This document shows positions 41,312 to 61,681 of a stretch of DNA of 64,000 nt, in pieces. The first letter of the stretch is position 1. Every line of letters starts with the position of its first letter. Source of the stretch: a virus; the IMG/VR virus record IMGVR_UViG_3300033485_000003, positions 38,958 to 102,957 of that record; one strand, 5' to 3'. A program made the translations under genes and the position numbers. Below the pieces are notes generated by a model, which had not been told where the DNA came from, did no database searches, and saw only the letters and a list, made by a program, of their open reading frames with translations.

Positions 41312-43549
41312 ATGCTCCTGCAAGATTTGCTCAAAAGCGTAGCTAGGTCTGCCGCCTTCCGACACCCGACGACTGGTCAGGTGTGGGAAGTCGGCAGTTT
41401 TCATGACATCGATTCCGTTCCAACAGAACATCATGGTCAGGTAGAGGCCGGCTACGTCGACCACATTGGTAAGTTTTTGACTAACGATCAAGCCAAGCAA
41501 ATCGTACTCCAGGATGTAAAAAAGTCCGAAGCTCCAGCGTCAAAAGAAGACGACACCATTCTTGACGGCGTCCTCGCCTCGGAAGCAATCGACAAGTCCG
41601 GCGAAGTGATGGACATCGAAGGGTGCGACATCACCGAATTCGACGAAGGTAAAGGCCTTCTCAATTACGAGCACAAAGACACCGGCCCTCAAGACGTCAT
41701 CGGCAAAATCCTCTACGCCAAGAAGATTTTCAGCGCCAAAGACTGCACCAACGACCGCCAGCGTAAGTATTGGGATGATCTCAAACTCCCTATGATCTAC
41801 GGAATCGTGCGATTGGCGGACGGCAGCGGACACCCAGGAGCCATCGCAGCGGCTGCTCGAATCCGCGACGACATCAAGCATGATGAGCCGTCGAGATGGG
41901 GTTTTTCGATTGAAGGAACAACCATCAAGCGCGACACCAAAACCGGGCGACTGCTCGTGACTATCGCCAAACGATGTGCGTTGACGTTCAAGCCATGCAA
42001 CGAATCCGCAGCTACCGGGCTGATTTATGACCCAGGTGTCAAGTCGGACTTGTTCCGCACTGCACCGTCGGACGCTTCTGTGGTCGGCGGTGAAGACTTA
42101 GTCAAGACTTTCGACGCGGCTCCGTCGCAACTCACCGGTACTGCAGCGCTAGCCACAGAAGATCTCGGAATCAAAGGTAAACTCCGTCGCGCTCTCAAGA
42201 AGTGGGATCGCAAGACCCCTCTGAAGGCATTCTTGAAGATGCAGATGCCAGAAGCCGATCCATCATACATCGACAACTTCGCTGATATGACGGAGCGCTA
42301 CACAATCCGCAAGGCGCAAGAACTGGCCCTCAAAAAGCACTTGATCAAGTCGGTCGTCACCAAGATGGCGGTCAAGACACTCAAGAAGAACAGGGCCGAT
42401 GCCAAGGCCGCACTGGTGGCGAAGATGGATTCGCTCGGGGTAGAACTCCTAGAGGAACTTCAAAAAGCCGACCAACCTAAACCTATACCGTCAAAGGTCG
42501 GGCCGATGATCCGCAAGGCGGCGCCACCAGAGCCAGAAACCGTCAAATACAACGGTCGTACAGTCAAACCCGGCTTCGCTATTGCAGGTGAAGGTAATAA
42601 CAAGCAGCACCTCAGAGTTCTAGAGCATACACCAGAACATCTCATCGCCGTGCCGAAAGAGAAAATCGGCGGATGGCAAGCGTCCGACCTTCTCAAGTTG
42701 CCGCGCAACAAGGTCCCCGGCAATATCTGGATGACACGCCCCCCGGAATACGTCGGTACACCAGCCGTCATCGACTCCAAAACCCACGGGCTGGTGAATT
42801 ACACCCACCACCCAGAAGTTCACGCGTTGATCCATGGGTTAGACATGGGTCAATCCAGCAAGGCAGGTACGGTCGGGATGAAAGCTAAGGCCGGACAGGC
42901 CGCTTGGATGAAAAATGCAGCAGGCAAGCATGTTTACGTTAAGCGTGATGACAATGAACGCCCCTTCGGCGAGTCTAAGCGTGAGGCTTTGTACCACAAC
43001 CTCGCCAAGGACTTTTATGGAATGGGCAAGTACGTCACACCAACTGCGGCCGTGATCCACCCGACCACAGGGCAGCACTACACGGTGGTGGAACATACTC
43101 CAGGCGAGCACTTCAAGCACGGCGATGGCCACCCCGAGATGCTTCAAAATCTGGCAAAGAGTGGAGAGCTCCATAAGCTCGCTATCATGAACGGTATTGC
43201 CCACAACAACGACCGCCACCAGTTTAACTACCTCCTCGACAACGGCAACATGAAACTCATCGATCATGGTCTCGCTTTCAGTGGCGGCGGAAGCACAAAA
43301 GCTCCGATGACTCCACACTACATGTACGGTGGGGCAGAAGAACTTCCCGTCCACCCAGAAGCCCAAAGGTGGCTGCAAAAACTTAAGCCGGCTGAATTGG
43401 AACGCCAAATGAACCAGCACGGCGTGCCACCGGAATTCGTCCAAGAGGCATCACGCCGCCTGCAAGCAATGCAATCCCACGTCCAGGCAAACCCGAAGGC
43501 TAAGTTGTATCAGGCCTTGAACTCCCCATTTGAAGGTGGTACGAAGTAG
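41312..43549 (+). CDS. Prohead protease fused to a C-terminal PI3/4-kinase- or HipA-like kinase
   Basis: Protease: DGVLASEAIDKSGE, LNYEH, VIGKI, GFSIEG, CALTFKPCN. Kinase: YVK, REA, NNDRHQFN, IDHGLAF. Confidence 0.85.
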   Translation: MLLQDLLKSVARSAAFRHPTTGQVWEVGSFHDIDSVPTEHHGQVEAGYVDHIGKFLTNDQAKQIVLQDVKKSEAPASKEDDTILDGVLASEAIDKSGEVMDIEGCDITEFDEGKGLLNYEHKDTGPQDVIGKILYAKKIFSAKDCTNDRQRKYWDDLKLPMIYGIVRLADGSGHPGAIAAAARIRDDIKHDEPSRWGFSIEGTTIKRDTKTGRLLVTIAKRCALTFKPCNESAATGLIYDPGVKSDLFRTAPSDASVVGGEDLVKTFDAAPSQLTGTAALATEDLGIKGKLRRALKKWDRKTPLKAFLKMQMPEADPSYIDNFADMTERYTIRKAQELALKKHLIKSVVTKMAVKTLKKNRADAKAALVAKMDSLGVELLEELQKADQPKPIPSKVGPMIRKAAPPEPETVKYNGRTVKPGFAIAGEGNNKQHLRVLEHTPEHLIAVPKEKIGGWQASDLLKLPRNKVPGNIWMTRPPEYVGTPAVIDSKTHGLVNYTHHPEVHALIHGLDMGQSSKAGTVGMKAKAGQAAWMKNAAGKHVYVKRDDNERPFGESKREALYHNLAKDFYGMGKYVTPTAAVIHPTTGQHYTVVEHTPGEHFKHGDGHPEMLQNLAKSGELHKLAIMNGIAHNNDRHQFNYLLDNGNMKLIDHGLAFSGGGSTKAPMTPHYMYGGAEELPVHPEAQRWLQKLKPAELERQMNQHGVPPEFVQEASRRLQAMQSHVQANPKAKLYQALNSPFEGGTK

Positions 43550-43551
43550 TC

Positions 43552-44718
43552 ATGAACGCCTCCAACATCATCATGGTTTACCAGACCCACCCACACGAAT
43601 CGGGTGAAATCCATCACGTTCTCGTGGCCAAGTTTTTGCAAGTTCCTGGTCGCACGACACTTCTCGAGGATCATACGCCGGACCACACATTCGACGCGAT
43701 TGCGAACGACCCCGTCGCCATCGAGTCCAAGCTCAACGCCGCCAAGCGCTCCATGTATTTTCAGGTGTGCACTCTACAAGAGCTCAATGAGGGCGAACAC
43801 CCCGAATTATTGTCAGAGGCGCTCTTGCCGCCAGCCCATGGGCCGGAGTCTCGGTTCGATTACTTCCGCATTGGAATGCCGCAGCCGCAGCTCCTCGAGT
43901 TCTATGAGGGAGAAGGACACCTGGACGGGCACCCATTGTCGGACGAAGAGCTACAGTTGATTCACTCGAACATTGAGCGAGGTTTGGCGTCGCTTTCGTA
44001 TCACAAGGACGAGCCTGAAGTTATTGCTAAGTCGGAGGATCTCGCGAAGGTAGAGCCCCACCTTGAGGCGGCGCTAGGGGGTCTCCGTGCTGCAGTGGCA
44101 GCCGGCCATGTACATCCGGATGTTCTCAAAACACTATCCGGGCATATTTTCAAGGATACCATGGTGCCTACAATGGGCAACCGCGTATCGTTCCAGGATT
44201 TTATGTCGCGCCCGAGAGAGGGCGTTCATATCAGACTAGATGGCGCAAAATTCGGCGGCATCAATAAGCGTGCCGGGTTTGAAACTGGCAACGAAGCAAT
44301 CAAGTCTATGTTCGGTGCGGTTCGTTCGGCATTAGATGAGAGTGTCGGACGCAAAAATGCAAAGTCGTGGCGCATTGGTGGAGACGAAGGTCACGTACAT
44401 GTACCTACACTTGAGCACGCCGCTATGTTCCATCGCTCGCTCAAGCGCCACTTGGACGCTCTCCCCCTCGTGGCAGGTCAGAAGCTCGCCTTCGACATGG
44501 GTGTTGGTAAGACGCCGGAAGCCGCAGAGCAAGGTCTGATTCAAGCCAAGACGAAGGGGAAGTCTATGAACTATCCCCTACACGAGCTGAGGACTCACGC
44601 CTACGTTAACATTCCGGGTCATGAAGGGCATCTTCCTACAGAGACGGAACAGCCACCTAAGGTTCAGACTCCGACGCAGCCGACAGAGAAGCCGGCTGAG
44701 CCCAAGGTCACTACGTAA
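43552..44718 (+). CDS. Head-module protein with a variant GGDEF domain
   Basis: DTMVPTMGNRVSF, RLDGAKFGGINKRAGFETGNEAI, WRIGGDEG and DMGVG motifs. Confidence 0.75.
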   Translation: MNASNIIMVYQTHPHESGEIHHVLVAKFLQVPGRTTLLEDHTPDHTFDAIANDPVAIESKLNAAKRSMYFQVCTLQELNEGEHPELLSEALLPPAHGPESRFDYFRIGMPQPQLLEFYEGEGHLDGHPLSDEELQLIHSNIERGLASLSYHKDEPEVIAKSEDLAKVEPHLEAALGGLRAAVAAGHVHPDVLKTLSGHIFKDTMVPTMGNRVSFQDFMSRPREGVHIRLDGAKFGGINKRAGFETGNEAIKSMFGAVRSALDESVGRKNAKSWRIGGDEGHVHVPTLEHAAMFHRSLKRHLDALPLVAGQKLAFDMGVGKTPEAAEQGLIQAKTKGKSMNYPLHELRTHAYVNIPGHEGHLPTETEQPPKVQTPTQPTEKPAEPKVTT

Positions 44719-44730
44719 TATAAGTGACAA

Positions 44731-44853
44731 TGTCGTAGATAAACGCCACCCATTGGATGGCTTTGTTATTTTCAAGGTTTATTCGGAATCGCGCCTCACT
44801 CTTACGGCAATGAGTTGATGGCGCAAGATAACGACCAAATTACGGCACCACCA
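44731..44853 (+). ncRNA. Candidate multibranch structured RNA
   Basis: Nested stems TGTCGTAG/TTACGGCA, TTGTTATTTT/AAGATAACGA and GCGCC-TCA-CTC/GAG-TGA-GGCGC. Confidence 0.35.
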
Positions 44854-44873
44854 GCAGCCTCTGACGGGGAAGA

Positions 44874-45665: not shown

Positions 45666-46112
45666 ATGGCAACGTGCTATAAGTCGGAAGTTCTCGCCGC
45701 GCAGCTCAAGGCGAACCTAGAGAAGTTTTTCACCACCGTTTCGGACGTGCAGTACGACGCGAACAACACCCCCTACGTCACCATCGGTGCAATGACCACA
45801 GGCACGCAGAGCGCGCTCGTCCGCGTTTTCGCGCTTCAGCCCCTTGGGGTTGATGGTCTTGGTCTCGCGACCCGCAGCTGGGGCCCGAACACCATTCAGG
45901 TCGTTCTCGAGACGTCGGCCACCGCCAACCTCGCGTTCCTCACCGCGGCCAACTCGGCGCTTGTGATGCTTGAGGCCGGCAAGACTGGTTCCAAGGTCGA
46001 GCTCTATATGCGTGCGACTGGCACACCTCCGGCAGTGACAGACATCGTCGCCGCCAACCTGAAGGCCGAGTGGTACATGTCGACCAAGTGGAAGATGGGT
46101 TCCGCGACCTAA
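45666..46112 (+). CDS. Putative head structural/decoration protein
   Basis: AAGGAG RBS after a cUUCGg hairpin; upstream of the scaffold and MCP genes. Confidence 0.65.
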   Translation: MATCYKSEVLAAQLKANLEKFFTTVSDVQYDANNTPYVTIGAMTTGTQSALVRVFALQPLGVDGLGLATRSWGPNTIQVVLETSATANLAFLTAANSALVMLEAGKTGSKVELYMRATGTPPAVTDIVAANLKAEWYMSTKWKMGSAT

Positions 46113-46143
46113 TCCTCGTGAAGGTTCTCGGAGAAAACATACC

Positions 46144-47091
46144 ATGAAAATCAAAGAATCAGAACTCAAGGCAATTTTTGATGAGGTTGCAGAAGACCTC
46201 AGCAAGTGCTTTGAAGAAGAGTCGCAGAAGCTAGCTAAGTCCATCCCCGGCGGTGCCGAGGAATCGTCCAGCTCGGACGAGGGCTCGAAGTCGGCTATCC
46301 CGGACGCCAGTGCGTCTGAAGGTAGCTCGGCCGAGGGTTCGAAGGATGAGGATTCGAAGGGTTCGGATAGTTCGGTTCCCCCACCCCCGGCAGCCACACC
46401 GGCAGCTTCGCCCAGCCCTGCGGCTTCGCCTAGCGCCCCGGTTGCTCCCCCTGTAGCCGACCCGGCAGCCCTTGCAGCCGACATCAATGCCGGCGCAGCA
46501 GTGACCCCGGAACTGTTGCATTCGGAATACCTCAAGATGATGCAAGAGGATCCTGCCCAGTTCGCCATGCACGTGCAGGCGCTGGATGCGGTTAAGGCGG
46601 CCACTGCCGGCGCCTCGCCGAGTCCCGCTCCCGCGACACCTGCAGCCCCAGTTGCTCCTCCTATGGACGCAATGAAGGCCGAGCTCTCGCCTAGTCCCGA
46701 CCGTAAGCCGGGTGGCCAGAAGGTGGAAGTTGTACACAAGTCGGAGGATTTGAGCCGATTTGAGAATCTCATGAAGTCCTATGAGACGAAGGTAGCAGAA
46801 CTCGAAGCCAAGCTCAAGAGCCAGGCCGATGAGCAAGTTGCCGTACAGCAAGTGTTGACGAAGATCGTCGAGCGCCCCATGCGCAAGTCGATTGAGTCGA
46901 TTGCACAGGTCGCCCAAGCCCCCAAGGCCGTCGATTTGAGCAAGTTGTCTCGCGAAGCCGTCACGTCCCACCTGGGCAAGGTAGCCCGCAGCGCAGAACT
47001 CAAGAAGTCCGACCGCAGTCTCATCAATGATTTTTACTCAGGTACAGCCAAGCTCGAGCAGCTCGCACACCTCTTTTCGGAAGTCAAGTAG
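46144..47091 (+). CDS. Putative scaffolding protein
   Basis: Low-complexity and coiled-coil, many xKS/KA motifs, directly before the MCP. Confidence 0.65.
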   Translation: MKIKESELKAIFDEVAEDLSKCFEEESQKLAKSIPGGAEESSSSDEGSKSAIPDASASEGSSAEGSKDEDSKGSDSSVPPPPAATPAASPSPAASPSAPVAPPVADPAALAADINAGAAVTPELLHSEYLKMMQEDPAQFAMHVQALDAVKAATAGASPSPAPATPAAPVAPPMDAMKAELSPSPDRKPGGQKVEVVHKSEDLSRFENLMKSYETKVAELEAKLKSQADEQVAVQQVLTKIVERPMRKSIESIAQVAQAPKAVDLSKLSREAVTSHLGKVARSAELKKSDRSLINDFYSGTAKLEQLAHLFSEVK

Positions 47092-47115: not shown

Positions 47116-48504
47116 ATGGCATCAGAAGTTACCCAAGCACTACTCAAGGCGATGGAAGCCGGCAATTACGACGCGGCCCCATCCACTCTCACCAACGGCG
47201 CAGCGCTTCAGCGAGAAGACCTGTCCCCCGTCATGACGAACCTCTGCTTCGAGGATCAACACGTCAAATTGCAAAGTAAGTTGTCCGTCAAGAAGGTCAA
47301 GTCCTTGATGAGCCAGTTTAACCGGACCCTCAGCTACGGCCAGATGGGTACGAGCGCGCAGTACGATGGTCAGGTCGGTCAGGACGAGACGGCAGACTAC
47401 GTACGTATCACCGTTCCGATCGGGTTTTACAGCCACGTTCGACGCGTGCCTTACAGCGCCACCCTCATCGAGACCGCCGACGGCGTCGACGCTGAGACGC
47501 GAGCCAAGGAAGCCGCTGGCAAGATCATCCTTGCTGACGTTGAGTTCGACGCTTTCCGCGGTATGGAAGGCTTCAGCAACGCAGGCGTGTTCGACGGCCA
47601 CGATATGGCCACCCCCGAGCTCCCCGGCATGAAGGGCCTCGACCTGCAGATCCGTCAGAGCGACAACGAGCGCAATGCTCACGACCTGATGTTCGCAGAG
47701 TACGGCGCTGATGACTCGGTTGTCATCAACGGCGGCAGCTACCTCAGCCAGACCAACGTGGAAGACGCGACCCTCCGTAGCAGCATGAACTGGGGCACGG
47801 CGACCAAGTTCCTCCTCGATCCCAAGACCCTCTCGGCGTACAACCTGATCACCCTCGGCAAGGAGCGCATCAACCTCGGCTCCACTGCTCAGGACGCGAC
47901 GGGTTCGGAACTCCGTCGGCAGTTCACCTCGAGCGGCACGGCCACCTTCGAGGCTTCGAGATTCTTGTCGGGCAAGACCAAGGTCAAGCCGTCGCGTGCT
48001 GGCGGCCTCGCGGCTCCCACTGCCGTGACTGCAACACCGGCTCCTGGCAGCACCAGCTTCCCCGCTGGCGATTACCAGTACTTCGTGACGGCATGCAATG
48101 AAATGGGCGAGTCTCCTCGCACCGCCATTGCAGCGGCTGTGACGGTTGCGGCTGGCGGCCAGGTCACCTTGTCCATCACCAATCCTGCTGGCACGGTTCG
48201 CTACTTCCACGTGTACCGTAGCAACGCCGGTGGTTCGCTCAACTCCTGCAAGTCGATCGGCCGCGTGGCTGCAAACGGCTCGGGTACGACAGTGTACGTA
48301 GACCTGAACAATCGTATTCCAGGGTACGTAAATGCCTACCTCGTGGACTTCGACTCGATGGACATCGCCGAATTGGCTCCATACTCCAGCCTCAAGCTCG
48401 CAATGAGCGCACTGAACATGCCGCAAGCTCACCTCCGATTCCTTGCCCTGAGAGTGTATCGCCCACGTGTCAACGTGATCGTCGACAACCTCATGGGGCG
48501 GTAA
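47116..48504 (+). CDS. Major capsid protein (SPO1/Twort-like) with an FN3-like insertion
   Basis: LLKAMEAG...GAALQREDL, and YQYFVTACNEMGES..YFHVYRS..YVDLNNRIPG; strong RBS and terminator. Confidence 0.85.
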   Translation: MASEVTQALLKAMEAGNYDAAPSTLTNGAALQREDLSPVMTNLCFEDQHVKLQSKLSVKKVKSLMSQFNRTLSYGQMGTSAQYDGQVGQDETADYVRITVPIGFYSHVRRVPYSATLIETADGVDAETRAKEAAGKIILADVEFDAFRGMEGFSNAGVFDGHDMATPELPGMKGLDLQIRQSDNERNAHDLMFAEYGADDSVVINGGSYLSQTNVEDATLRSSMNWGTATKFLLDPKTLSAYNLITLGKERINLGSTAQDATGSELRRQFTSSGTATFEASRFLSGKTKVKPSRAGGLAAPTAVTATPAPGSTSFPAGDYQYFVTACNEMGESPRTAIAAAVTVAAGGQVTLSITNPAGTVRYFHVYRSNAGGSLNSCKSIGRVAANGSGTTVYVDLNNRIPGYVNAYLVDFDSMDIAELAPYSSLKLAMSALNMPQAHLRFLALRVYRPRVNVIVDNLMGR

Positions 48505-48532
48505 TTCAGCCGAATCCATGCGATGATTGATT

Positions 48533-48568
48533 GGGCCCGGGAATCGCCTCCCGGGCCCTTGTCGTTTC
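48533..48568 (+). terminator. Intrinsic terminator after the MCP gene
   Basis: GGGCCCGGGA/TCCCGGGCCC stem followed by TTGTCGTTT. Confidence 0.75.
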
Positions 48569-48844
48569 TGGAGGACTGTGCTACACCACAGATACAGGTA
48601 GTGAAGACTACTCCAAATAGCGTCGATGAGTTCTGGTGAGATGTCTATGTTTTGTGGGGATAAGCACGACCATATAAGGACGAAGAGTTGTTTCAATACA
48701 AGCATGTTGGTGTATTCCTTTTGAATGTTGACTACAGGGGATAAGACGACTCGTCTTCGGTACCTGGCGACATTTACTCCGAATAGTCGATGAATGGTCG
48801 TTGACGTCAGAAGTGTGGCGTGGTAGAATCTCAATCGAGGATTA

Positions 48845-50518
48845 ATGAGACCAACACCCAAAGAGGTCGTCGACCAAATCTGTCAACTGTTTCATAGTGG
48901 CAAGACCGTTTGGGATATTGGCGCTGCCCTCTCGCTCCCCACCTCAACGGTGCGAAGGGTGCTAAACAGAAACGGGCTCCACTACCCCAAAGTTGCAACC
49001 TCAAAAGAAACCGTCGACGCCGCCTGTGAACTATTCAAAACAGGCAAGACTCTGCTTGAAATTTGCAAGGCGTTGTCTCTTCCGTATGCCACAGCACGTA
49101 AGGTGTTGGCTGTTCGTGGGTTCCGCTACTCCAGGAAGAAATCAAAACAAGCCTTATGTCATCAAGAAATATGCGACATGGCTGCCAATGGTGTTTTTTT
49201 GCATCAAATCGCCGACGCTCTCGGTCTGTCTCGTACGGAGCTATGGACGTACTGTAAGGTACAGCACATTGAATTCAAGAAGGCGCTGCTCGACCCCACG
49301 CCGCAGCAGATGCAGATGATTAAAGATGCGGTCGTGCAAAACCTGGAGCTTCCCGTCAAACAACGCCTAACGCTCCCCAAACTCGCAGCGGAGTTGGGAG
49401 TCACGACATCCGCCGTAAAGGCAGCTAGAAAGCAATTAGGGGTCGTGCACGATCGATCTGCGGATATGATCAAGAATACCCCACAAGACTTCTTGGATAC
49501 GTGTCGCGTCAGAGGATTTACCGCAAAGTCGGTGCCTGACAAGATTTTGATGACAGATAAAATCACACTAATCTGCCCCTGCGGAGCCGAGTTCGCCCCT
49601 ATGGTGCAATCGGTGTTTAGAGGTACTGTCACGTCATGTGGCTGTCTTAAATCAAAAGCCCAGGCGGACTTGCTTCGTTCTATTCAAGAGATGGGGTTCG
49701 GGGTAGAGAAAAACAACAAGCGCCTACTCGACAACAGAGAGCTCGACGTCTACATTCCATCCAAGAAATTTGCGATTGAATACAATGGGCTGTATTGGCA
49801 CCGAGAGGACATTCTCGCACGCAATCGAGACAACCCCACCAACTACCATGCAGACAAGTTCCATCGCCTAGCCATCATGGGGATTCAACTCATCACCATC
49901 TTCGAAGATGAGTGGCTAGAAAACAAAGAATTGGTATTGTCGATGCTCCGAGCCAAATTGGGTGTCGCCTCGAAGTCGATTTTTGCGCGCAAATGCAATG
50001 TAACGTGGGACAAGGGCCGCGTCCACGACTTTGTGCAGCGTAATCACATTCAGGGTGCATGTCATGGCGCCCACCTCGGCCTAGAGCTAGATGGCGAAGT
50101 GGTAGCCGGTATGATTTTTCGTGCCAACGGGAGATTGACGCAGTCTGGACAAGAACTGGCTAGATTCTGCAACCTCGCCAATACACGCGTCGTCGGTGGG
50201 TTTTCGAAGTTGCTCCGAGCGTTCATCGAGAAACACTCTCCGACAGAAGTTGTTTCTTTGTCCGACAATAGATGGAGCGACGGCGGTCTATACAAGAACA
50301 ACGGATTTAGCCTTGCAAGAGAGTCAGAGCCGAGTTACTACTACGTCAAGGGGAGCAAGAGGCTACACAAGTCTCAGTTCCGACTAGAGCGGCTCAAAAA
50401 GATGGGGTGGTACGAAGAGGGCAAAACCGAAGCTCAAATCACAGCTGAACACGGATTACACCGCATCTACGACTGTGGCAAGAAGGCGTGGCTCTTCCGT
50501 CCTCAAATCCAACCATGA
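48845..50518 (+). CDS. HTH repeats + Vsr/PD-(D/E)xK homing-endonuclease-like protein (Hef-like C-terminus)
   Basis: ELDVYIPSKKFAIEYNGLYWH, IFEDEW, IFARKC, ELARFC..VVGGFSKL and IYDCGK; promoter TTGACG-17-TAGAAT at 48801. Confidence 0.75.
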   Translation: MRPTPKEVVDQICQLFHSGKTVWDIGAALSLPTSTVRRVLNRNGLHYPKVATSKETVDAACELFKTGKTLLEICKALSLPYATARKVLAVRGFRYSRKKSKQALCHQEICDMAANGVFLHQIADALGLSRTELWTYCKVQHIEFKKALLDPTPQQMQMIKDAVVQNLELPVKQRLTLPKLAAELGVTTSAVKAARKQLGVVHDRSADMIKNTPQDFLDTCRVRGFTAKSVPDKILMTDKITLICPCGAEFAPMVQSVFRGTVTSCGCLKSKAQADLLRSIQEMGFGVEKNNKRLLDNRELDVYIPSKKFAIEYNGLYWHREDILARNRDNPTNYHADKFHRLAIMGIQLITIFEDEWLENKELVLSMLRAKLGVASKSIFARKCNVTWDKGRVHDFVQRNHIQGACHGAHLGLELDGEVVAGMIFRANGRLTQSGQELARFCNLANTRVVGGFSKLLRAFIEKHSPTEVVSLSDNRWSDGGLYKNNGFSLARESEPSYYYVKGSKRLHKSQFRLERLKKMGWYEEGKTEAQITAEHGLHRIYDCGKKAWLFRPQIQP

Positions 50519-50826
50519 TGATAGAACTCTTCCACGACATGGAATGGGACGAGCTAGAAGCCGAGGCGGCCGACCTTGGTACACCGCCTGAGCGCCTTGA
50601 AGAATTGTCGCATTGTAGGCAACTCGACGTGAGATATTGGGTCGCATTCAACTCCAGCGCATCTCCAGAGACGCTGATCCGACTTGCACAAGATCGGTAC
50701 GAGAGTGTTCGCCGCCGGGTGTTTGAAAATCCATCCACACCACCTTTAGTGAAATTGTGGTTGCAAACCGACTACCGACATACTATATCTCTGGAAGAAT
50801 TCTTGAAAGCCGCCAAGGAGGCGTAA
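50515..50826 (+). CDS. HEAT/LRV-repeat protein with conserved C-terminal tag
   Basis: NPSTPPLVKLWLQTDYRHTISLEEFL. Confidence 0.75.
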   Translation: MMIELFHDMEWDELEAEAADLGTPPERLEELSHCRQLDVRYWVAFNSSASPETLIRLAQDRYESVRRRVFENPSTPPLVKLWLQTDYRHTISLEEFLKAAKEA

Positions 50827-52361: not shown

Positions 52362-53417
52362 ATGCACAACGACGAACAAAATCTAGGGTACATTCGTAAC
52401 TTTCTCGCGACCAACGGGGTGGTATACACCGAGCCCGAGACCGGCATCTTCAACATGACCGGCGGGAGCGGCAAGGCGATCCAGGTCCGTTACGCCAATG
52501 AAGATCTCAAAATCGTCTCGAAGCGTTTTGGGGTCGCTGGCGTGCAAATGGATTACTGCTATAAGATCACCGTAGCACAAGAAAAACTCGGCGTCCGGGT
52601 GATCTGGTGGAAGTCGTTCGAGCTCGAGGATCGGTTTGGGGTGAGTTCGACCCGCAAGCGCAACGTGATTCAATCGTACATCCTCTCGGCTACTGGCAAG
52701 GTCGGCACCCGGTTCTATGCCCGCGAGTGTGAAGTCAAGGAAATCACGAACAAGCAGGCCCAGCCCTTCCTCGACGCCAACAGCTTCTACGGCCACCGTT
52801 CCGCGTCGCTAACGTATGGATTGTTCAATAAGAAGCCGAAGGGCGACATCCCGGCGGGCACGCTACTAATGGTGTTGAGCCTAGGTTCGCCCTACTACGG
52901 TAGGGATTTGTACGACATGGAAGTTCTGAGGTCGTCCACGCTCCTGAACGTACAGGTCGTCGGGGGCTCCTCGAAGCTTATGAAGCACTGCTTCGAACCA
53001 GACGCCATCAAGATCGCCGGCAAGGAAATCAGATGGAACAGTGTTGTTTTTTATGTCGATTTGTGTCATAACGATGGCGCATCTCTCCCTACACTTGGGT
53101 TCAAATTCTGGAAGGACTCTGGCGGAGGGCTGATGAACATCGACCTCGTCAAGGGCGAGACCTTCAACCGTCGCCCGGCCCAACACAAAGAAATCATGAA
53201 GATGATGGCTGAAGGTCGAGTGGTTTCGGCACCATTGTGTGGTGTCAGGAATTACGTGTACTGTAAGAACGGAGATTACTCCAAGTACGGGATTGTGGAC
53301 GCCCTACCCCCAACCTATGTCGGTCTCGTCGTTAACGCCCCAATCATTGAAGAGAAGCCCAAAACAATGGAGCGGTCCTTTGAGAATCCAGATTCTAGCC
53401 TTGTGTCTGCTGTGTAG
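52362..53417 (+). CDS. Diverged homolog of the C-terminal part of the 48845 protein
   Basis: FYARECEVKEI, FLDANSFYG, VVGGSSKL and YVD motifs; leaderless promoter TTGACA-17-TAATGT. Confidence 0.6.
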   Translation: MHNDEQNLGYIRNFLATNGVVYTEPETGIFNMTGGSGKAIQVRYANEDLKIVSKRFGVAGVQMDYCYKITVAQEKLGVRVIWWKSFELEDRFGVSSTRKRNVIQSYILSATGKVGTRFYARECEVKEITNKQAQPFLDANSFYGHRSASLTYGLFNKKPKGDIPAGTLLMVLSLGSPYYGRDLYDMEVLRSSTLLNVQVVGGSSKLMKHCFEPDAIKIAGKEIRWNSVVFYVDLCHNDGASLPTLGFKFWKDSGGGLMNIDLVKGETFNRRPAQHKEIMKMMAEGRVVSAPLCGVRNYVYCKNGDYSKYGIVDALPPTYVGLVVNAPIIEEKPKTMERSFENPDSSLVSAV

Positions 53418-53983: not shown

Positions 53984-56900
53984 ATGCGCAAGAGCTTGGC
54001 CGAACATGATAACCCAGTTGAGCGGATTTTGGCGCTCAAGTCGGCAACCGTTACAGGAGATCAACTTCGAGCGGCCTTGCAAGATCCAGATCCGACCGTA
54101 CGGGCGTTCGCGGCGCACCATCCCACCCTCCCTCAAGATGTGGTTCAGGGCGACACTTCAGATCTTCCGCCAGATGCTCAAAAAGAAGTGGAATCTCGTC
54201 CAGACTACGCCGCCGTGCAGGAAGCTGGCTGGGCCAACCCTGATTCCAACATGGTCGATGCAGACCCATGGGTGCAAGCCAAGTATCGTCGCGGCGGCCA
54301 TCAAACATTCGAGCGGTATTTGAAGGAGCTCCAGGCTGGATTGCACAAAGCTTTAGACTTTGAAACATTGGCGAACCGTCCGATTGCTACGCCACTGCTG
54401 TATAGGGCCTATAAGCACTCGCCCCACCACCCGGTTTCATTGTTGTTGAAGTATGCAGTCAATCGTATCGAGAACAAAGATATCTACGAGCACGGCAGTC
54501 CGGATCAAGTCGCGCAGCACGAAAAAGCGTGGATGCAGCATCATCAACACGAAAAGAATTCCAACGTCAACATTGAAGACCTACACCAGGCACTCAAATC
54601 CAACCCCAAAATCGTCGAGAACGTACAGGCCCATCAAGCGAAACTTCATAGTTACATTAAGCAGCACAATCCAGATGCCATTAGGGAGATCAACGGACAA
54701 CCGCATATCGCCTTGGCGAGAGGCTACACGGTGCCGAACCCAGGCGCCGACCACGACATAGCTTCGTACGCTGATGACGCTAGTACCGCAGGGAGTTTTG
54801 GGGGTACGGTCAAGCATTGGTGGGTGCCGTTGAAGAACGTGTGGTATTCGTACCACGTGGGACATCAAACGGCCGGAGGGTTGTTGGGGCCAGAGAATGA
54901 ATTCTTGGCATCCAACCATCCACGATTGCCAGCGAGTGTCCCGGATGTCCAACCTGTAGTTCCGAGAGAGCATTATGGCTACACAGAACCCACGGGAGAC
55001 TGGAAACTAGAGCACACGTCAGATGTTGGGCAATTAGGGCGGCTGGCAAGTCATCCGAGTTCAGGTGCTGAAATCCAATCGCATTTGGCTGCACTAAAGA
55101 ATAAGCGTGTACCCTCAGAGTTGCTGCAACACCAAATCCACTCGCCGAATCCGGACATCCGCGCTGCGGTGATGTTGCACCCCAATACTACGTCGGAGCA
55201 AATCCACACAGGACTTAAGGATCCCGACAACTTCGTAGCCCTAAACGCGGTATCTCGGTCCGATTTGACCCCAGAACACTTGACTGCAGCCCTGAAGCAC
55301 CCGAGTCCGCTCGTCCGAAAGCTGGCCTTGAGTGACCCTAAAGCCGGCCACGCCCATATCAAGATGGGGTTGGCCGATCAAGATGAGAGCGTCCGTAAGG
55401 TGGCGGAACAACAAAAAGTGGCGCTGTCCAAACCAAAGGTCCATGTACCCAAACCGCCCGAGCCAGAAACCCACTCAAGCCCTGCGGTGGTGATTGGGGA
55501 TAAGCATACCCCTAAAAGCTACGCCGAGCATCTGATTTCCAAACACGGGTGGCGCCAAACATCCGAGGGACTTCAGAAGAACATCGGGTATGTGGTTTAC
55601 CCCCACTTCGGGGTGCCGTCCCCGTATTCCGAGCCGATGGCACGAGATCGGAAGCAATTCACCTCCTTCGGGCAGGCCAGCGTCGGTCTAAACGATCCGA
55701 GCGCTAGCGGCTACACAGCCTATAACTCTAGGTCGAATAAGCCGACTCCGACCGAAAGACGTCAATTCGGTGCTTCGTATAATACTGCCGCCAAATTTAA
55801 TGCCACCGAACATGAAACGCAACACTCTGTCTATTCTATACTTAAACAGATGCACGGCAGAGAGGTTGGAAGGCGCATTGTAGAGAAGACTATCGCGGGA
55901 CTCACTCCCGATGAACGAGGTCACCTGCGCGCCATCACCGATGTATATGTTAAGAAATACCCCGAAGCCAAGGCTCCTGAAGAGCGTATCGCACACCTAC
56001 ACAACTACACCTCCGATCCTGAGTTTCGTAAAGCCGCTCACGCGCACATGGGTATCGGTGGCAACGTCCGAGCCCAACAGTTGAGCTTGCAGCACGCCAA
56101 GAAAATCGCCCAAAAGTTGCAACATATTGCAGCGAACATGAAGCCAGAGCATGTCGGTCTCTCGGACACACAAAAATCTGAGAGTGTCATTAATGAGCTC
56201 GGGTTCGGTGTCCAACAGGACCTATATCTTAATGCTGTGAATGATTTGTGTCAAATTGAGTGCGACGAAGACTTGTTTCGACTAGAGCTAGTCAAAAATG
56301 ACGACATAGTCGCGTCCGCACTCTTTAGCGCCCACCTTCCCCCGTTGACAGAATACCTCGCGACGGTTGACGAGGTGGCACGGACAGTAAGTTTGGCTTC
56401 AGTTCTGAGCAAATCTGAAGTGGAAGTTCACGGCGTACTTCCAGAAGGGCAGTCTGCGGCGGATGCGATCAAGCGCGCCTTCGAAGCCGACCAGGTAGAA
56501 GAGGTGCAGCTCGGAGGTAAGCACTCTAAAGGTACCATGGTAGCAGAGGATCCGCACGGCGAGCACTTCTTACTTAAGCCTGGTAGCGGCAAGCCGAGTC
56601 CAGCTCAAGGCGTCCGAGAAGAACCCGCCTCGCAAGCCCGTAGAGAGTGTGCATTTTGGCATGTGGCGAGGAATTGGGGGCTTGGGCAGTTCTTCCCTCG
56701 AGCCGATTTGGTCTCTGTCAACGACAAGGAAGTCGCAGCCATGCACCGGCTGCCGTGGGATTGGCAAAACCTAGACAAGCTAGCAAGCAAGGATCCACAA
56801 GCTCCGGTGAGGGCTCTGGAGTCGTACCTCAAGAATGGCGATATACACAAATGGGCTGTGATTGATGCGGTGCTGGGTCAAACAGATCGCCATGGCGCCA

Positions 56901-57277
56901 ACATTATGGTGTCTCCGGATGAAGACGACTACAAGATCGCCTTAATCGACCAAGGAAGCGCCCTGGCAGGTCCATCCTTTTCTCCCGGCACCGACCCGAA
57001 GTCATTTATCCCATACTACCTGCGAGTGTGGCGCGCAAAAGACTGGAAAGACATGCCTTTGGAGCAAAAACTCAAGGCCATGCCAGAAGTGCACGGGGAT
57101 CGTGAAACTCACCTGGCGCAATGGGTACTCGGGCTTCGCGAAGAGGACCTGGAAAGCATTCTGGTCCGATATGGCGTCACACCGCAAGCAAGTCTAGCTC
57201 GTTTGGCTCAATTCAAGAAGATGGCTTTGATGCCTGATTTCTGTGTAGCAATCAACCGATGGTGGTTAGAGACTTAG
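53984..57277 (+). CDS. Polyvalent protein: HEAT repeats, ART-like domain, HExxH peptidase-like domain and PI3/4-kinase-like domain
   Basis: LARG/ASYA/ENEF, HEAT repeats, HETQH, and LLKP..RRE..QTDRHGAN..IDQG. Confidence 0.75.
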   Translation: MRKSLAEHDNPVERILALKSATVTGDQLRAALQDPDPTVRAFAAHHPTLPQDVVQGDTSDLPPDAQKEVESRPDYAAVQEAGWANPDSNMVDADPWVQAKYRRGGHQTFERYLKELQAGLHKALDFETLANRPIATPLLYRAYKHSPHHPVSLLLKYAVNRIENKDIYEHGSPDQVAQHEKAWMQHHQHEKNSNVNIEDLHQALKSNPKIVENVQAHQAKLHSYIKQHNPDAIREINGQPHIALARGYTVPNPGADHDIASYADDASTAGSFGGTVKHWWVPLKNVWYSYHVGHQTAGGLLGPENEFLASNHPRLPASVPDVQPVVPREHYGYTEPTGDWKLEHTSDVGQLGRLASHPSSGAEIQSHLAALKNKRVPSELLQHQIHSPNPDIRAAVMLHPNTTSEQIHTGLKDPDNFVALNAVSRSDLTPEHLTAALKHPSPLVRKLALSDPKAGHAHIKMGLADQDESVRKVAEQQKVALSKPKVHVPKPPEPETHSSPAVVIGDKHTPKSYAEHLISKHGWRQTSEGLQKNIGYVVYPHFGVPSPYSEPMARDRKQFTSFGQASVGLNDPSASGYTAYNSRSNKPTPTERRQFGASYNTAAKFNATEHETQHSVYSILKQMHGREVGRRIVEKTIAGLTPDERGHLRAITDVYVKKYPEAKAPEERIAHLHNYTSDPEFRKAAHAHMGIGGNVRAQQLSLQHAKKIAQKLQHIAANMKPEHVGLSDTQKSESVINELGFGVQQDLYLNAVNDLCQIECDEDLFRLELVKNDDIVASALFSAHLPPLTEYLATVDEVARTVSLASVLSKSEVEVHGVLPEGQSAADAIKRAFEADQVEEVQLGGKHSKGTMVAEDPHGEHFLLKPGSGKPSPAQGVREEPASQARRECAFWHVARNWGLGQFFPRADLVSVNDKEVAAMHRLPWDWQNLDKLASKDPQAPVRALESYLKNGDIHKWAVIDAVLGQTDRHGANIMVSPDEDDYKIALIDQGSALAGPSFSPGTDPKSFIPYYLRVWRAKDWKDMPLEQKLKAMPEVHGDRETHLAQWVLGLREEDLESILVRYGVTPQASLARLAQFKKMALMPDFCVAINRWWLET

Positions 57278-57985: not shown

Positions 57986-58045
57986 CAGCCACAATCGTTT
58001 ATACGTGGTCGCCTGTCGGCGACATGCAACATTTAGGAGTCATAC

Positions 58046-58354: not shown

Positions 58355-58388
58355 AACGAACATGGCCCCCATCTAACGATGGGGTTTT

Positions 58389-58462
58389 GGGGTTGTAGCT
58401 CAGTTGGGACGAGCGCCGCACTTGCACTGCGGAGGTCCTCGGTTCGATCCCGAGCGACTCCA
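58389..58462 (+). tRNA. tRNA-Ala(TGC)
   Basis: Full cloverleaf, G3-U70, anticodon arm CCGCA-CT-TGC-AC-TGCGG; CCA not encoded. Confidence 0.92.
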
Positions 58463-58524
58463 CTTCATAGTTGTAAATGTAGTCCTGACAGTCCGGTCAT
58501 CTCACGATGGCCGGCTGTTCCATT

Positions 58525-59172
58525 TCAGCCCTCGGCTTCAATCTCTTCGACGTCCTTTTTAGAATACCCATCGCCATAGTCCATGTCGCTGAAGATCCGC
58601 ACCAACTTCGTGATGCCACTCCATGCCTTGTGACCGTATGGGATCATCCGGTACTGTACTTTGTCCTCTAGACGGGCATTGTATGGGTACAAGATCCCGA
58701 TGCAGTGCGCGAACGCGTGAGCCCCCCAATACTCCTCTAGATTTTCAGCGCAGTCGTCAATGATGACATCTGCGTTGAAGCGGTACTTGTCCTTCAAAAA
58801 CACCACTTGGCTGCGGATGTCGATGAAGGGGAAATTGGTGGTCACCCATTGAAGAGTCTCTGGAAGACCGTTGGAGCCAAACCGAGCTGTGACAAAATAC
58901 ACGTCATGGCCGGCATCCATCAGTCTCTTGACGCCCTCAACCGCGCCCGGCATGACCGGAACCGCGAGGTTGAATCCAGTGGCATTCAAGTGTCCGAAGA
59001 TCTTGCCAGGTGGAACTGCGCCGGCTAGAGGAGGACATTTAGCCAAATCCCACTGATTGATGTCTTCGACTTTGGCGTAGACGCCGGTGTCGTCGCCGAT
59101 TTTCTGAAGCCAATACGGCAGTGTATCGGCTAGAATTCCATCGACATCGCACATTATGACGAGCTTGCGCAT
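58525..59172 (-). CDS. 5'(3')-deoxyribonucleotidase (HAD, NT5C-like)
   Basis: DVDGILAD, MPGA, FVTAR and IIDD motifs. Confidence 0.85.
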   Translation of the reverse strand: MRKLVIMCDVDGILADTLPYWLQKIGDDTGVYAKVEDINQWDLAKCPPLAGAVPPGKIFGHLNATGFNLAVPVMPGAVEGVKRLMDAGHDVYFVTARFGSNGLPETLQWVTTNFPFIDIRSQVVFLKDKYRFNADVIIDDCAENLEEYWGAHAFAHCIGILYPYNARLEDKVQYRMIPYGHKAWSGITKLVRIFSDMDYGDGYSKKDVEEIEAEG

Positions 59173-59585
59173 ATGAATATCCCATACATTCGTTTTTGTG
59201 AGTTGATCCAACGCTTTAGAAATTCGGCTCGGCCGTAAACCTGTAGTCCGGCATTGGGTAGCGGATCCCAAACCACCACCCTACGTCCATTGCCGGAGAC
59301 TACTAAAATCCAGTGACTGTCGCCGTCAACGCACAACATAGCAGGACTACCTAAAAATATCAATCGGTTCCAGCTGCGACGCTGATCGGCGGACGAATAT
59401 TCCACCGCGTCCACCTTCAGCCACTTCAGCGCTCGCAGTAGAGATGCTCCGTAGGTGCCATCTTCAGACGCCTTGGTCCATTGAACCACACTATCCCACT
59501 CGACGTTGCGGCCGAGCAGAATGAGCGTATTTTTCAGACAGGTGGGGCCGCAATCCCAACTACCTTTTTGGTGGTGGAGTTTCAC
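59154..59585 (-). CDS. Peptidase C39-like cysteine protease
   Basis: Q...DCGPTCL, HWILV and WDP motifs. Confidence 0.8.
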   Translation of the reverse strand: MKLHHQKGSWDCGPTCLKNTLILLGRNVEWDSVVQWTKASEDGTYGASLLRALKWLKVDAVEYSSADQRRSWNRLIFLGSPAMLCVDGDSHWILVVSGNGRRVVVWDPLPNAGLQVYGRAEFLKRWINSQKRMYGIFICASSS

Positions 59586-60388
59586 TTACGATCCAACACG
59601 AAGGGCTTTACAGAGAATGTCGCCGGCTCCGGCTTCAAATATGCATACATCTCACGCACGGCCACATTGAGTCGCTCGAGACCTTCTTGTTTATTGTTGT
59701 AGAGGATGGCGTCCCACCAGAAATCCGGGATTTGCCCCAAAGACGCCTCGGAGGCGTGTGCTGTAGACACCGTCAGCTCGCTAGACGCGACCTTCAGGCC
59801 TTTGCCGCCAACAGCCTTGATTTTGATGAGCTCGTTTGGAAAGCGAATGTCGGTAACGAAGACCATCGGACACGGCGGAGTCTTGTAGTCCGTCACAAGC
59901 CCCTGGAGTCGATTGTATCTATAGTTGCCTCCTAGGAGCTTGAGAGCCGTCTTGACTGCAAGTTCGGGCCAAACTGCGGGATTGTGCGTTCGAGCGTATT
60001 CCGTACCGAGTTGCTGGAGCATAATGCGAGGGGAAAAAGTGCCGGAGTCTGCGAACTCGCTTTCTATCTTATCAAACCATACTTCGAGCGATTTGACATC
60101 ACCGATCCCGACCTCTTCCAACCACTGCTCGGCCACCTTGGTCCCAAACAGGTTGTTGTAGGCTTCATCCCACCCATTTTGCTTAAGATATCGCTCATCC
60201 ACACCGTTGCGCTTCTCTGAAGGCCCCCAAAGCTGCTCTTCGGTAAAGTCGAAGCCGTATCGCCCCAGCCACTTGATGGGGTCGGCCTGGGCGATGGGAA
60301 CACTCCCGGGCTGCAACTTCATCATCATGCCGGCTACGGTGTCTTTGCCGGCTCCAGCCTGTCCGCCAATTCCAATGATAGGTGTCAT
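59582..60388 (-). CDS. Deoxynucleoside monophosphate kinase
   Basis: GQAGAGKDT, ADPIK, PRIMLQQLGTE, TDIRFPNE and HASE motifs. Confidence 0.88.
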   Translation of the reverse strand: MTPIIGIGGQAGAGKDTVAGMMMKLQPGSVPIAQADPIKWLGRYGFDFTEEQLWGPSEKRNGVDERYLKQNGWDEAYNNLFGTKVAEQWLEEVGIGDVKSLEVWFDKIESEFADSGTFSPRIMLQQLGTEYARTHNPAVWPELAVKTALKLLGGNYRYNRLQGLVTDYKTPPCPMVFVTDIRFPNELIKIKAVGGKGLKVASSELTVSTAHASEASLGQIPDFWWDAILYNNKQEGLERLNVAVREMYAYLKPEPATFSVKPFVLDRK

Positions 60389-60418
60389 GGTGTTCTCCTA
60401 GAGATCAATCTTGTTGAT

Positions 60419-61681
60419 ATGAACGAGTCCAACTACATGCCATCTATACCCGACCAATCGTCCCTCGTCAAGGCCGATACTCCGGCGCAAAAAGGCGGGT
60501 TCGAGGGGCCGAGCAAGACTTACGCCGCCCAACCCAAGGTTATGGAGCACGTGTCGGACTGGCAGCGTAATTTCGGCCGTTTGATGGCCCTGAAACACGG
60601 CCACAAGGCGGACACCCAAGAGGTCAAGGAGGACAAGCCGGATTTTGAGGGGGCGTTCCACAAAATAGCGTCACAAAAAGACCCGGGTAGTGTCAGTGAC
60701 GACCTCAAGAAGCAAATCCTGCAGATTCTGGAGTCCGTCAAGCAGCATGCCCCAGAGATGGAAAGTTTGAAGCAGTCCGCACCGGACATTTACGCATCAG
60801 TAAGTGCTCTAATCCAAGTTATGATCGCGATTGTGCGCGATGTCTCTGGAGAAAAGTCCGAAATCAAGAAGTCCGAAGACTCGATCGGTGGAGAAGGCTC
60901 TCACGAACCAGACATAAAGTTCGACCCAGAGCAACTTGTCGCCGGAACTCAAAACGAAATGCGCGAGCACAATTTGCCGGCCGAGCAAGCCAAGAAAATC
61001 GCCAAAGATCACCTGTTGGAAGAACCGGACTACTATAAGAAGGGCGAAGTCCCGGCGGCGCAGACGACAGCCGCATACAAACACCGTCAAACCGGCCAGG
61101 TCCATGAAACCGGATACTTCCACGATGCTACAGCCCTTCCGCACCCTGAGTCGGAATACACCAAAGGTTTTGTTCACGGCGGTCAGTTCCATACCCCCGA
61201 AGAGGCTCGAGCGAAGAACTTGATGCCCAAGAAGAAGCTCGTTAAGGACGAAATCGCGCCACCGCCGCTACATAGCGATGTCAACAACTTCATGGTCGGA
61301 TTGAAGGGACTTCCTCGTGGAACTCCGCAGCGTGGGTTGTACATCCAGCAACACATGAACCACCCGGCGTTTTTGACTTCGTTGCAGAGCCACCCGCAAG
61401 GTAAGCAAGTTCACGGGATGTTGACGGGGTTCATGAATGGCGTCGCCAACGCCGGACCCCACAACGCCCCTAGAGCGACCGTCAAGGCGGAAGAGCTGCC
61501 TAAGCCTAAGCTACCTGTGGGGACTGTTTTGGATTGCGGACCGACATCGCAGCACGGCCACGCGGGTAAAATCAAGGTGCAGACGCCGGACGGTCAAGAG
61601 CATTGGCGCGGAGTTCGTTCCGGACTGAAGATGGGGCCCGACGGCACGGCCACTGGCGCTCGGCCGGAGTCGAAGGAGTAA
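60419..61681 (+). CDS. Modular head-associated protein (DUF5661-like domain + module shared with the prohead protease)
   Basis: FDPEQL..G...E..EH...AKKIAKDHLLEEPDYY, and AAYKH..TGQV.E.G.FHD; multiple KS/KA motifs. Confidence 0.7.
   Translation: MNESNYMPSIPDQSSLVKADTPAQKGGFEGPSKTYAAQPKVMEHVSDWQRNFGRLMALKHGHKADTQEVKEDKPDFEGAFHKIASQKDPGSVSDDLKKQILQILESVKQHAPEMESLKQSAPDIYASVSALIQVMIAIVRDVSGEKSEIKKSEDSIGGEGSHEPDIKFDPEQLVAGTQNEMREHNLPAEQAKKIAKDHLLEEPDYYKKGEVPAAQTTAAYKHRQTGQVHETGYFHDATALPHPESEYTKGFVHGGQFHTPEEARAKNLMPKKKLVKDEIAPPPLHSDVNNFMVGLKGLPRGTPQRGLYIQQHMNHPAFLTSLQSHPQGKQVHGMLTGFMNGVANAGPHNAPRATVKAEELPKPKLPVGTVLDCGPTSQHGHAGKIKVQTPDGQEHWRGVRSGLKMGPDGTATGARPESKE

Follow-up and report, generated by a model that had tools for sequence, protein, structure and literature searches.

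The window analyzed here is a stretch of 64,000 nucleotides (positions 38,958 to 102,957 of IMG/VR record IMGVR_UViG_3300033485_000003) that makes up the right 64 kb of a 102,957-base contig of an uncultured, Mx1-like myophage. Its head module encodes a protease polyprotein, a putative scaffold, the major capsid protein (MCP) and several multi-enzyme proteins, all of which share a short motif centered on Lys. We consider it probable that the prohead protease dices the multi-enzyme head precursors at this motif. A preliminary description of positions 41312-61681, made from the DNA letters, had proposed that polyproteins are cut at loose xxK[S/A/N] strings and that the freed enzymes could be injected with the DNA; taken as a whole, that interpretation was partly supported.

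The MCP of the window was 49.6% identical to that of Myxococcus phage Mx1 and about 25% identical to the capsid proteins of SPO1-like Bacillus phages, and the same capsid protein was also present on a 164-kb contig in the protein database. The clade is large, with more than 960 capsid homologues at E < 1e-20 and matches of the protease polyprotein to at least 1,096 representatives of 50%-identity clusters; an IMG/VR scan with the MCP alone returned one relative only. The terminase, portal and MCP genes lie on one strand within 25 kb. Gene order was that of Mx1 (terminase, a 334-residue protein, portal, protease polyprotein, cyclase protein, scaffold, MCP and giant multi-domain proteins), broken here by homing endonucleases, two minus-strand nucleotide-metabolism genes and an intein in the portal. 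The protease gene keeps its place between the portal and the scaffold and MCP genes, with three non-head genes (ThyA, an ATPase and an HNH gene) inserted between portal and protease. Gene calling covered the entire contig and a reconstructed genome of Mx1, and the plus-strand proteins of the head module were compared with all others. The wider sample consisted of 80 IMG/VR loci around Mx1-like capsid genes. The main features are given below; genes are named by their first coordinate and a slash marks the predicted cut.

41312-43549, plus strand: protease polyprotein, 745 amino acids (PHROG 1028 head maturation protease, E 1e-8; AlphaFold; BFVD; PDB matches)
41516-41530, plus strand: VKK/SE site (K71), joining a lineage-specific 71-residue N-terminal module to the protease domain
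42092-42181, plus strand: copy of the MCP N-arm; its Lys (K265) is kept in all 40 homologues aligned (family alignment)
43552-44718, plus strand: two-module protein, 388 amino acids, with an N-terminal module, IAK/SE (44023-44037) and a putative, diverged GGDEF-type cyclase
46144-47091, plus strand: putative scaffold, 315 amino acids, with MK/AE (46672-46683), HK/SE (46735-46746) and LKK/SD
47116-48504, plus strand: MCP (PHROG 752, E 1e-43)
47140-47157, plus strand: predicted MCP maturation cut LLK/AME, after K11 (homologue alignment, PDB chain)
53984-57277, plus strand: polyvalent precursor, 1097 amino acids (AlphaFold, structural matches, family alignment)
54341-54352, plus strand: LHK/A in gene 53984
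55571-55582, plus strand: LQK/N in gene 53984
55811-55825, plus strand: HExxH motif in gene 53984
56171-56182, plus strand: QK/SE in gene 53984
56408-56419, plus strand: SK/SE in gene 53984
56414-57274, plus strand: PI4KII-like kinase, C-terminus of gene 53984
60419-61681, plus strand: modular head protein, 420 amino acids, with tandem EK/SE and IKK/SE (60851-60877), VK/AE (61481-61492) and a DUF5661 segment
61067-61237, plus strand: copy of the protease N-terminal module in gene 60419 (homology)

The product of gene 41312 consists, in order, of a small N-terminal module, the VKK/SE site, an HK97-type protease (residues 80-243), a linker with the MCP N-arm copy, scaffold-like helices (residues 285-400) and a PI4KII-like kinase region (residues 402-745). 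The protease domain was modeled with high predicted local distance difference test (pLDDT) values, and a Foldseek search of BFVD matched it to many HK97-family prohead proteases (for example E 3e-7, TM 0.65, 166-residue target). A phmmer search of the domain against PDB sequences gave no match. H121, S199, D170, H174 and E201 were invariant in 40 protease homologues. On the strength of the model, the domain is assigned to the HK97-family (S78/COG3740) prohead serine proteases with an assemblin-like fold. Homologues ranged from 430 to 1,953 residues, always with the protease N-terminal, and one carried a GGDEF domain. Most of them begin at the protease domain itself, the 71-residue module being an extra of this lineage; its residues 13-71 are homologous to residues 217-273 of gene 60419 (E 2e-5). 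The MCP N-arm copy sits in a disordered linker after the protease domain, and in Mx1 the protease copy and the MCP share nearly the same 15 residues after the Lys. The kinase region matched PI4KII and PI3K structures (Foldseek, PDB).

The capsid protein shows where the cut may fall. Among 120 capsid homologues, a variable prepeptide of 8-17 residues was followed by an invariant K-[AS]-[LM]-E-A-G, and SPO1 gp6.1 has the same N-K-A-L-E-A-G stretch. K11 of the window MCP aligned with Lys24 of the Twort-like capsid protein, for which the PDB holds a 463-residue full-length chain and a 439-residue mature chain that, by its numbering, starts at Ser25 directly after Lys24. The PDB chains bear out the statement in the preliminary description that Twort-type capsid proteins mature after Lys. 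No paper in the literature collection searched states a Lys/Ser cleavage rule directly for Herelleviridae or HK97. Cleavage of gp5 in HK97 follows Lys103. Given that the same site marks the capsid maturation cut, the head protease probably cuts the multi-enzyme proteins too.

Re-translation of the coordinates found every string that had been listed in the preliminary description in the gene named for it. The predicted enrichment of [LIVM]xK[SA] was also found, with 3.36 matches per 1000 residues in the head module vs. 1.61 in the rest of the genome (2.1-fold, p 0.002) and again a 2.1-fold excess in the Mx1 head module (p 5e-5), but nearly all of it was due to sites with Glu after Ser. An unbiased scan of all tripeptides ranked K-S-E as the most head-enriched tripeptide in both genomes: 11 in the head module vs. 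2 in the rest of the window genome (15-fold, p 2.9e-5, 1,994 tripeptides tested) and 17 vs. 2 in Mx1 (38-fold, p 3.5e-11, 3,350 tripeptides tested). Outside the head module only 2 K-S-E were found, in 23,593-43,004 residues. The loose xxK[S/A/N] was rejected as the true rule: without an acidic residue at P2' the enrichment fell to 1.5-1.6-fold (p about 0.04-0.05), with a hydrophobic P3 in 28-29% of matches vs. a background of 23%. About half of the strings first listed are probably chance matches, among them LLKS, LIKS, LAKS, LMKS and MRKS, which lack the acidic P2'.

In the two head modules, and likewise in the two large families of proteins, K-S-E outnumbered each of its five permutations 4- to 10-fold. 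It exceeded expectation 4.6- and 2.7-fold in the two families and 4.1-fold in the 80 IMG/VR head loci (443 vs. 107 expected). Leu, Met, Ile or Val occupied P3, two residues before the Lys, at 79% of the IMG/VR sites, compared with 23% in the background and 12-16% in permuted controls; the site flanks in these loci were also enriched in Glu. The codons of K-S-E varied between sites, with Ser encoded by both TCN and AGY. The dependence on residue order together with the variation in codons argues for selection on the protein rather than for composition, and we regard the motif as almost certainly real and selected. A cut after Glu (K-S-E/) was considered and rejected; it would place the hydrophobic residue at P5, and the MCP alignment puts the mature N-terminus right after the Lys. 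The SPN3US prohead protease cuts after A-x-E (PMC10052503), and the hydrophobic P3 matches this known prohead-protease geometry only if the cut follows the Lys.

Judged by P3, KSD, KTE, KNE, KAE and RSE are partly genuine variants, and in the relatives K[SA] without an acidic next residue had P3 at background. Read from these sequence patterns, the site rule is [LMIV]-x-K-[S>A,T,N]-[E>D], which in the window genome gave 17 hits in the head region vs. 10 elsewhere (4.5-fold, p 1e-4). KAE alone showed no genome-wide enrichment (p 0.28 and 0.38), and in part it behaves as a minority variant that is accepted at conserved positions only.

The positions of the sites relative to folded modules were compared on AlphaFold models built on family alignments (mean pLDDT 78.9 for the 745-residue polyprotein and 84.2 for the 1097-residue protein). 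Many sites had been described as lying at domain boundaries, and pLDDT was below 50 at K71 of the protease polyprotein and at K122, K532, K731 and K810 of the 1097-residue protein, whose linkers in the model span residues 116-124, 484-532, 727-741 and 804-811. All three KSE sites of the two models (K71, K731 and K810) lay in stretches of pLDDT below 50, for which segment lengths give a chance of about 0.002. The LHKA (K122) and LQKN (K532) sites were in the other two long linkers of the 1097-residue protein, and K532 LQKN reads LQKS in close relatives. The IAK/SE site of gene 43552 (K160) is consistent with the same arrangement: the gene corresponds to two individual Mx1 genes joined end to end, with the site some 10 residues past the joint.

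Homologues gave the same picture. Among 51 homologues of the 1097-residue protein, only 2 of 73 KSE were inside mapped conserved modules, which make up 28% of the residues (p 1.4e-8). In homologues, an ART-PolyVal domain (residues 1259-1517) is bracketed by sites at 1203 and 1527 and a NUDIX domain (220-324) by sites at 210 and 356, and in a 1479-residue protein of Mx1 the sites at 131, 309, 608 and 1253 lie between or beyond YunG, GNAT, ART-PolyVal and NUDIX domains. At the junction before the kinase, aligned in 48 homologues, P3 was hydrophobic in 44, P1 was Lys in 44 of 46, P1' was Ser in 25 and Ala in 11, and P2' was Glu in 27 and Asp in 7; the surrounding sequence was otherwise variable. 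K810 was kept in at least 90% of the 1097-residue protein family. The conserved site of the protease family had Ser at P1' in 13 and Ala in 7. A common Lys-type site links the MCP N-terminus, portal, scaffold, protease and multi-enzyme proteins, as had been suspected from the letters.

The 1097-residue protein begins with a HEAT-like N-terminus, followed by LHK/A, an ADP-ribosyltransferase (ART)-like module with HEAT repeats, LQK/N, the HExxH module, QK/SE, a helical piece, SK/SE and the kinase. A structural search with the whole model was filled by kinase and HEAT matches. Residues 815-1097 superposed on PI4KII alpha (Z 19.5, root-mean-square deviation 3.4 A over 244 residues), on CtkA (Z 14.8) and on HipT (Z 13.1). 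The catalytic D-R-H-x-x-N loop and the metal-binding I-D-x-G are present, and D968, H970, N973, D989 and K865 were at least 90% conserved. PF00454 scored 24.7 and 20.1 bits, under its cut-off of 27.1, and is precomputed for many homologues. Judged by their modeled folds, the two kinases are distant members of the PI3/PI4-kinase superfamily, with a PI4KII/CtkA/HipA-like fold, and not canonical lipid kinases. A kinase occurs in nearly every homologue of both polyprotein families and nearly always C-terminally, and the other modules vary.

Of the cargo identities in the preliminary description, the two kinases held, with conserved catalytic motifs, the cyclase appears to be a diverged GGDEF domain, and the ART-like and zincin-like HExxH modules are leads only. 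The ART-like module of gene 53984 had no Pfam hit; its language-model neighbors were several ART families, all below 0.9, and it is distinct from the ART-PolyVal domain of the homologues. The HExxH module has a conserved later His in many homologues, and its match was recovered in part of the 53984 family only; in the protein atlas it gave nothing usable, with one cluster containing 18% LPD23. The cyclase part of gene 43552 matched Pfam GGDEF (PF00990) at E 0.014 and 15.6 bits, under the cut-off of 23.8, and reads GGDEG where the Mx1 orthologue, annotated as a nucleotide cyclase, has GGDEF.

Relatives were expected to swap modules between conserved sites, and comparison with the homologues and with Mx1 showed this. 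Modules were shuffled, with positions differing between 53984 homologues; the homologues carry NUDIX, GNAT, ART-PolyVal and GGDEF modules, and the window protein has the kinase, HExxH and ART-like modules and HEAT repeats. What gene 60419 has in common with its Mx1 counterpart is limited to the helix preceding the tandem sites and to roughly the final 55 residues, and Mx1 has an mCpol domain instead of the enzyme parts found here; this difference between shared segments supports cargo swapping. No common N-terminal tag was found, the N-proximal sites being K18 in gene 60419 and K51 in gene 32280. Two further Mx1 genes with K-S-E, 37603-39282 and 33963-35369, had weak matches to S-adenosylmethionine-lyase (E 8e-5) and mCpol (E 5e-4), respectively, and their products could be anti-restriction and nucleotide-signaling cargo.

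Sites of the same kind were found in the scaffold and portal and in two other proteins. The putative scaffold gene lies directly upstream of the MCP gene, and the C-terminal third of its product is homologous to the Mx1 protein encoded upstream of the MCP, which has three KSE and one KAE. The other site-bearing genes lie outside positions 41312-61681.

32280-33284, plus strand: 334-residue protein between terminase and portal, with PK/SE (32427-32438)
33285-36728, plus strand: portal (PHROG portal hits)
34557-35909, plus strand: portal intein (Intein_splicing, E 2e-11; LAGLIDADG_3, Pfam)
61683-62507, plus strand: 274-residue protein with TLK/SE (62079-62093), a site conserved in Mx1

The portal has a C-terminal LNK/SE (36570-36584), conserved in Mx1, and an N-terminal IAK/AE. 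Six of its K[SA] matches are inside the intein, which begins with Cys and ends in His-Asn before Ser; the Mx1 portal has no intein. An apparent LAGLIDADG intein was also seen in the ribonucleotide reductase large subunit (6914-9733, minus strand; weak Intein_splicing match, E 0.0035) and is similar to the portal intein (E 0.001). The Mx1 homologue of gene 32280, 42% identical, has no KSE or KAE.

In the explanation we favor, the head module would encode precursors for the prohead interior, namely the capsid protein, portal, scaffold, protease polyprotein and polyvalent multi-enzyme proteins, and the HK97-family serine prohead protease of gene 41312 (residues 80-243) would cut them after the Lys of [LMIV]-x-K-[S/A, sometimes T/N]-[E/D]. 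The capsid protein would lose 11 residues, the scaffold would be fragmented, the portal ends would be trimmed and the protease would release itself from its own polyprotein, which probably enters the prohead by means of its scaffold-like helices and built-in copy of the capsid N-arm. The long precursors would be cut at inter-module linkers to give separate folded enzymes: here two PI4KII/CtkA/HipA-like kinases, a GGDEF-type cyclase, an ART-like module and an HExxH module, and in relatives NUDIX, GNAT, ART-PolyVal, mCpol and S-adenosylmethionine-lyase-like modules. That the motif marks cuts by the prohead protease is likely. For the further step, that the enzymes are retained in the virion and ejected into the host with the DNA, we infer by analogy with T4, phiKZ and SPN3US and judge the chances to be evenly balanced. 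More tentatively, the Mx1-like clade with genomes of about 165 kb may use plug-in cargo, in which modules flanked by [LMIV]-x-K/S-E are loaded, released by the capsid protease and injected; a protease-fused HipA/PI4KII-like kinase would then be delivered by the virion and act on host signaling or defense before phage genes are expressed.

Several observations weigh against this explanation. In the MCP site, K-A-M-E, the Glu is shifted by one residue toward the C-terminus relative to K-S-E, and the rule is thus not fully uniform. Some homologues in both protein families have no KSE, one KSE of Mx1 lies inside the NUDIX box and is surely no site, and the proteins of gene 61683 and of Mx1 37603-39282 bear KSE without a shown link to the head interior. 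The polyvalent protein has an HExxH module of its own, a possible processing enzyme. The near-universal C-terminal kinase could serve in assembly or anchoring just as readily as it could be injected cargo. No virion proteomics of Mx1 were found in the literature, the Mx1 paper (PMC10720576) being titled as a genome-sequence announcement.

The alternative that survives best, although we regard it as unlikely, is that cleavage takes place at the sites without any injection of the enzymes. They would act late in the producing cell or in head assembly, for instance as a kinase on scaffold or capsid, or be bulky parts of the core or scaffold that are degraded or expelled before DNA packaging. A kinase that is present in both polyprotein families and keeps its mostly C-terminal place while its neighbors change resembles a central component of assembly. 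Scaffold-like helices are present in the protease polyprotein, and scaffold fragments are normally expelled (PMC10052503). Set against this, the types of module (ART, NUDIX, GNAT, GGDEF/mCpol, S-adenosylmethionine-lyase-like and HipA-like kinase) are those predicted for conflict proteins of the invasion stage (PMC5512222), folded modules of this size (about 200-400 residues) would seem too big to leave the head the way scaffold peptides do, and T4 Alt and the SPN3US ejection proteins are precedents.

It is considerably less probable that the sites are true cleavage sites served by another cutter, either the embedded HExxH zincin-like module, which would cut its own polypeptide and others in trans, or a protease of the host. 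Zincin-like metallopeptidase modules have been predicted to process polyvalent proteins (Iyer et al., 2017, PMC5512222), and the later His conserved with HExxH in many homologues would suit such a role. However, the same motif occurs at the capsid N-terminus, in the scaffold and portal and at the flanks of the protease itself, the MCP cut is homologous to the Twort-like maturation cut, and only part of the 53984 family has the HExxH match. Less credible again is an uncut K-S-E that serves as a docking or modification tag, such as a phospho-acceptor Ser for the kinases of the head module, or as a capsid-targeting signal. Ser is central in K-S-E and two kinases are encoded in the same module, but Ala replaces Ser at conserved positions (Ala in 11 of the 46 sequences at the junction before the kinase; in the protease family, Ala in 7 and Ser in 13), an alternation that argues against a phospho-acceptor role; in addition, an invariant Lys with a hydrophobic P3 has the geometry of a protease site, and the homologous Lys precedes the mature N-terminus in the solved capsid. 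Finally, the linkers are rich in Lys, Ser and Glu and the flanks are Glu-enriched, but a functionless by-product of linker composition or of duplicated-linker ancestry is already contradicted by the controls and almost certainly wrong, as the five permutations are 3-6-fold rarer in the same proteins and lack the P3 preference, flanking sequences and codons differ among sites, and K-S-E is nearly confined to the head module.

If the prohead protease makes the predicted cuts, the mature virion proteome could be predicted from a five-residue rule for an entire clade of environmental phages, and so could the enzymes carried inside the capsid. Polyvalent proteins, so far purely computational, would gain a processing mechanism tied to capsid maturation, and kinases, cyclases and ADP-ribosyltransferase-like enzymes delivered by the virion would amount to a pre-made arsenal against the host and its defenses. 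Mx1 and Myxococcus xanthus are a cultivable pair for a direct test. A cut after Lys looks like a trypsin cut, so semi-tryptic mass spectrometry cannot reveal such cuts. The site could also be a handle for loading chosen proteins into phage heads.

Other genes in and around the head module were recorded as well. Four HNH/homing-endonuclease genes lie in the packaging and head module (29026-30171, 39308-40465, 48845-50518 and 52362-53417, plus strand), one directly upstream of the terminase gene and another directly after the capsid gene, and they explain much of the extra spacing relative to Mx1. Genes for a 5'-nucleotidase (NT5C; 58525-59271) and a deoxynucleoside monophosphate kinase (59582-60388) are on the minus strand amid the head-cargo genes; in Mx1 the latter gene directly follows the capsid gene and has plus-strand orientation. 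Two adjacent small paralogous genes (40506-40754 and 40764-41045, plus strand; 39% identity, E 2e-12) lie a short way upstream of the protease polyprotein. Antisense open frames at 47140-48861 (minus strand, 573 amino acids) and 45717-46772 (minus strand, 351 amino acids) overlap the capsid and scaffold genes and are probably non-coding. Six small proteins, found in both arms, have a common C-terminal domain of about 85 residues (29-43% identity, E down to 4e-17):

50488-50826, 27409-27822, 27812-28540, 28527-28910, 21467-21892 and 21889-22266: small proteins sharing the C-terminal domain

One close functional parallel is T4. Its protease cuts after Glu in L/I-x-E, and here the cut is predicted after Lys; T4 cargo loses one short N-terminal targeting peptide, whereas the long chains of the window would be split at multiple internal joints into different enzymes. 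In both cases the prohead protease recognizes a single short motif, hydrophobic at P3, in the capsid protein, in the scaffold core and in enzymes of the capsid interior that are injected with the DNA, cutting and injection being predictions for the window. The protease family differs, being of the HK97 type here. The T4 prohead protease gp21 and the internal proteins IPI-III and Alt have been reviewed (PMC9958956, PMC3012670), and Alt is a packaged ADP-ribosyltransferase (PMC5512222). The giant phages phiKZ, 201phi2-1 and SPN3US, the last with protease gp245 and motif A-x-E (PMC10052503, PMC7411985), are similar in that many head proteins, including the portal and ejection proteins, share one motif, propeptides are cut repeatedly and the protease removes its own extension. 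Processing was shown there by mass spectrometry and is predicted here, and the specificity is for Glu there and for Lys here. Cleavage in SPN3US serves chiefly to take off N-terminal propeptides, not to split enzyme modules apart, and no protease-kinase fusion has been reported in these phages.

Polyvalent proteins (Iyer, Burroughs, Anand, de Souza and Aravind, 2017, PMC5512222) likewise combine unrelated enzyme domains (ART-PolyVal, GNAT, kinase, GGDEF, peptidases) in one polypeptide and shuffle them among relatives. Their genes neighbor those of the portal and terminase, and it is predicted that they are packaged and reach the recipient cell at invasion. In contrast, that study proposes processing mainly by embedded zincin-like peptidases and finds assemblin-like peptidases always at the C-terminus, whereas the protease here is N-terminal; its kinase is a truncated Ser/Thr/Tyr kinase, unlike the PI4KII/HipA-like fold here (PMC5512222). 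A defined Lys motif common to the capsid protein marks the joints in our proteins.

The Herelleviridae (SPO1 and Twort-like phi812) have a homologous MCP (PHROG 752), with the N-arm motif seen in SPO1 gp6.1 and the Lys at K24/S25, and HK97 has the protease fold that was found here. We know of no description, in Herelleviridae or HK97, of the same site dicing multi-enzyme cargo precursors; our motif scan covered the window genome, Mx1 and Mx1-like relatives. Lambda C/Nu3 and P2 gpO begin with a prohead protease and continue into helical, scaffold-like sequence, which brings the protease into the prohead. The polyprotein described here contains, in addition, the capsid N-arm copy, inserted modules that vary (one homologue has GGDEF) and, at its C-terminus, a kinase. 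Relative to T4, phiKZ, SPN3US and the polyvalent proteins, three features are new: the Lys-type motif held in common with the capsid protein, its predicted use for separating enzymes at many internal joints, and the fusion of a prohead protease, placed N-terminally, with a kinase and a second version of the capsid N-arm.

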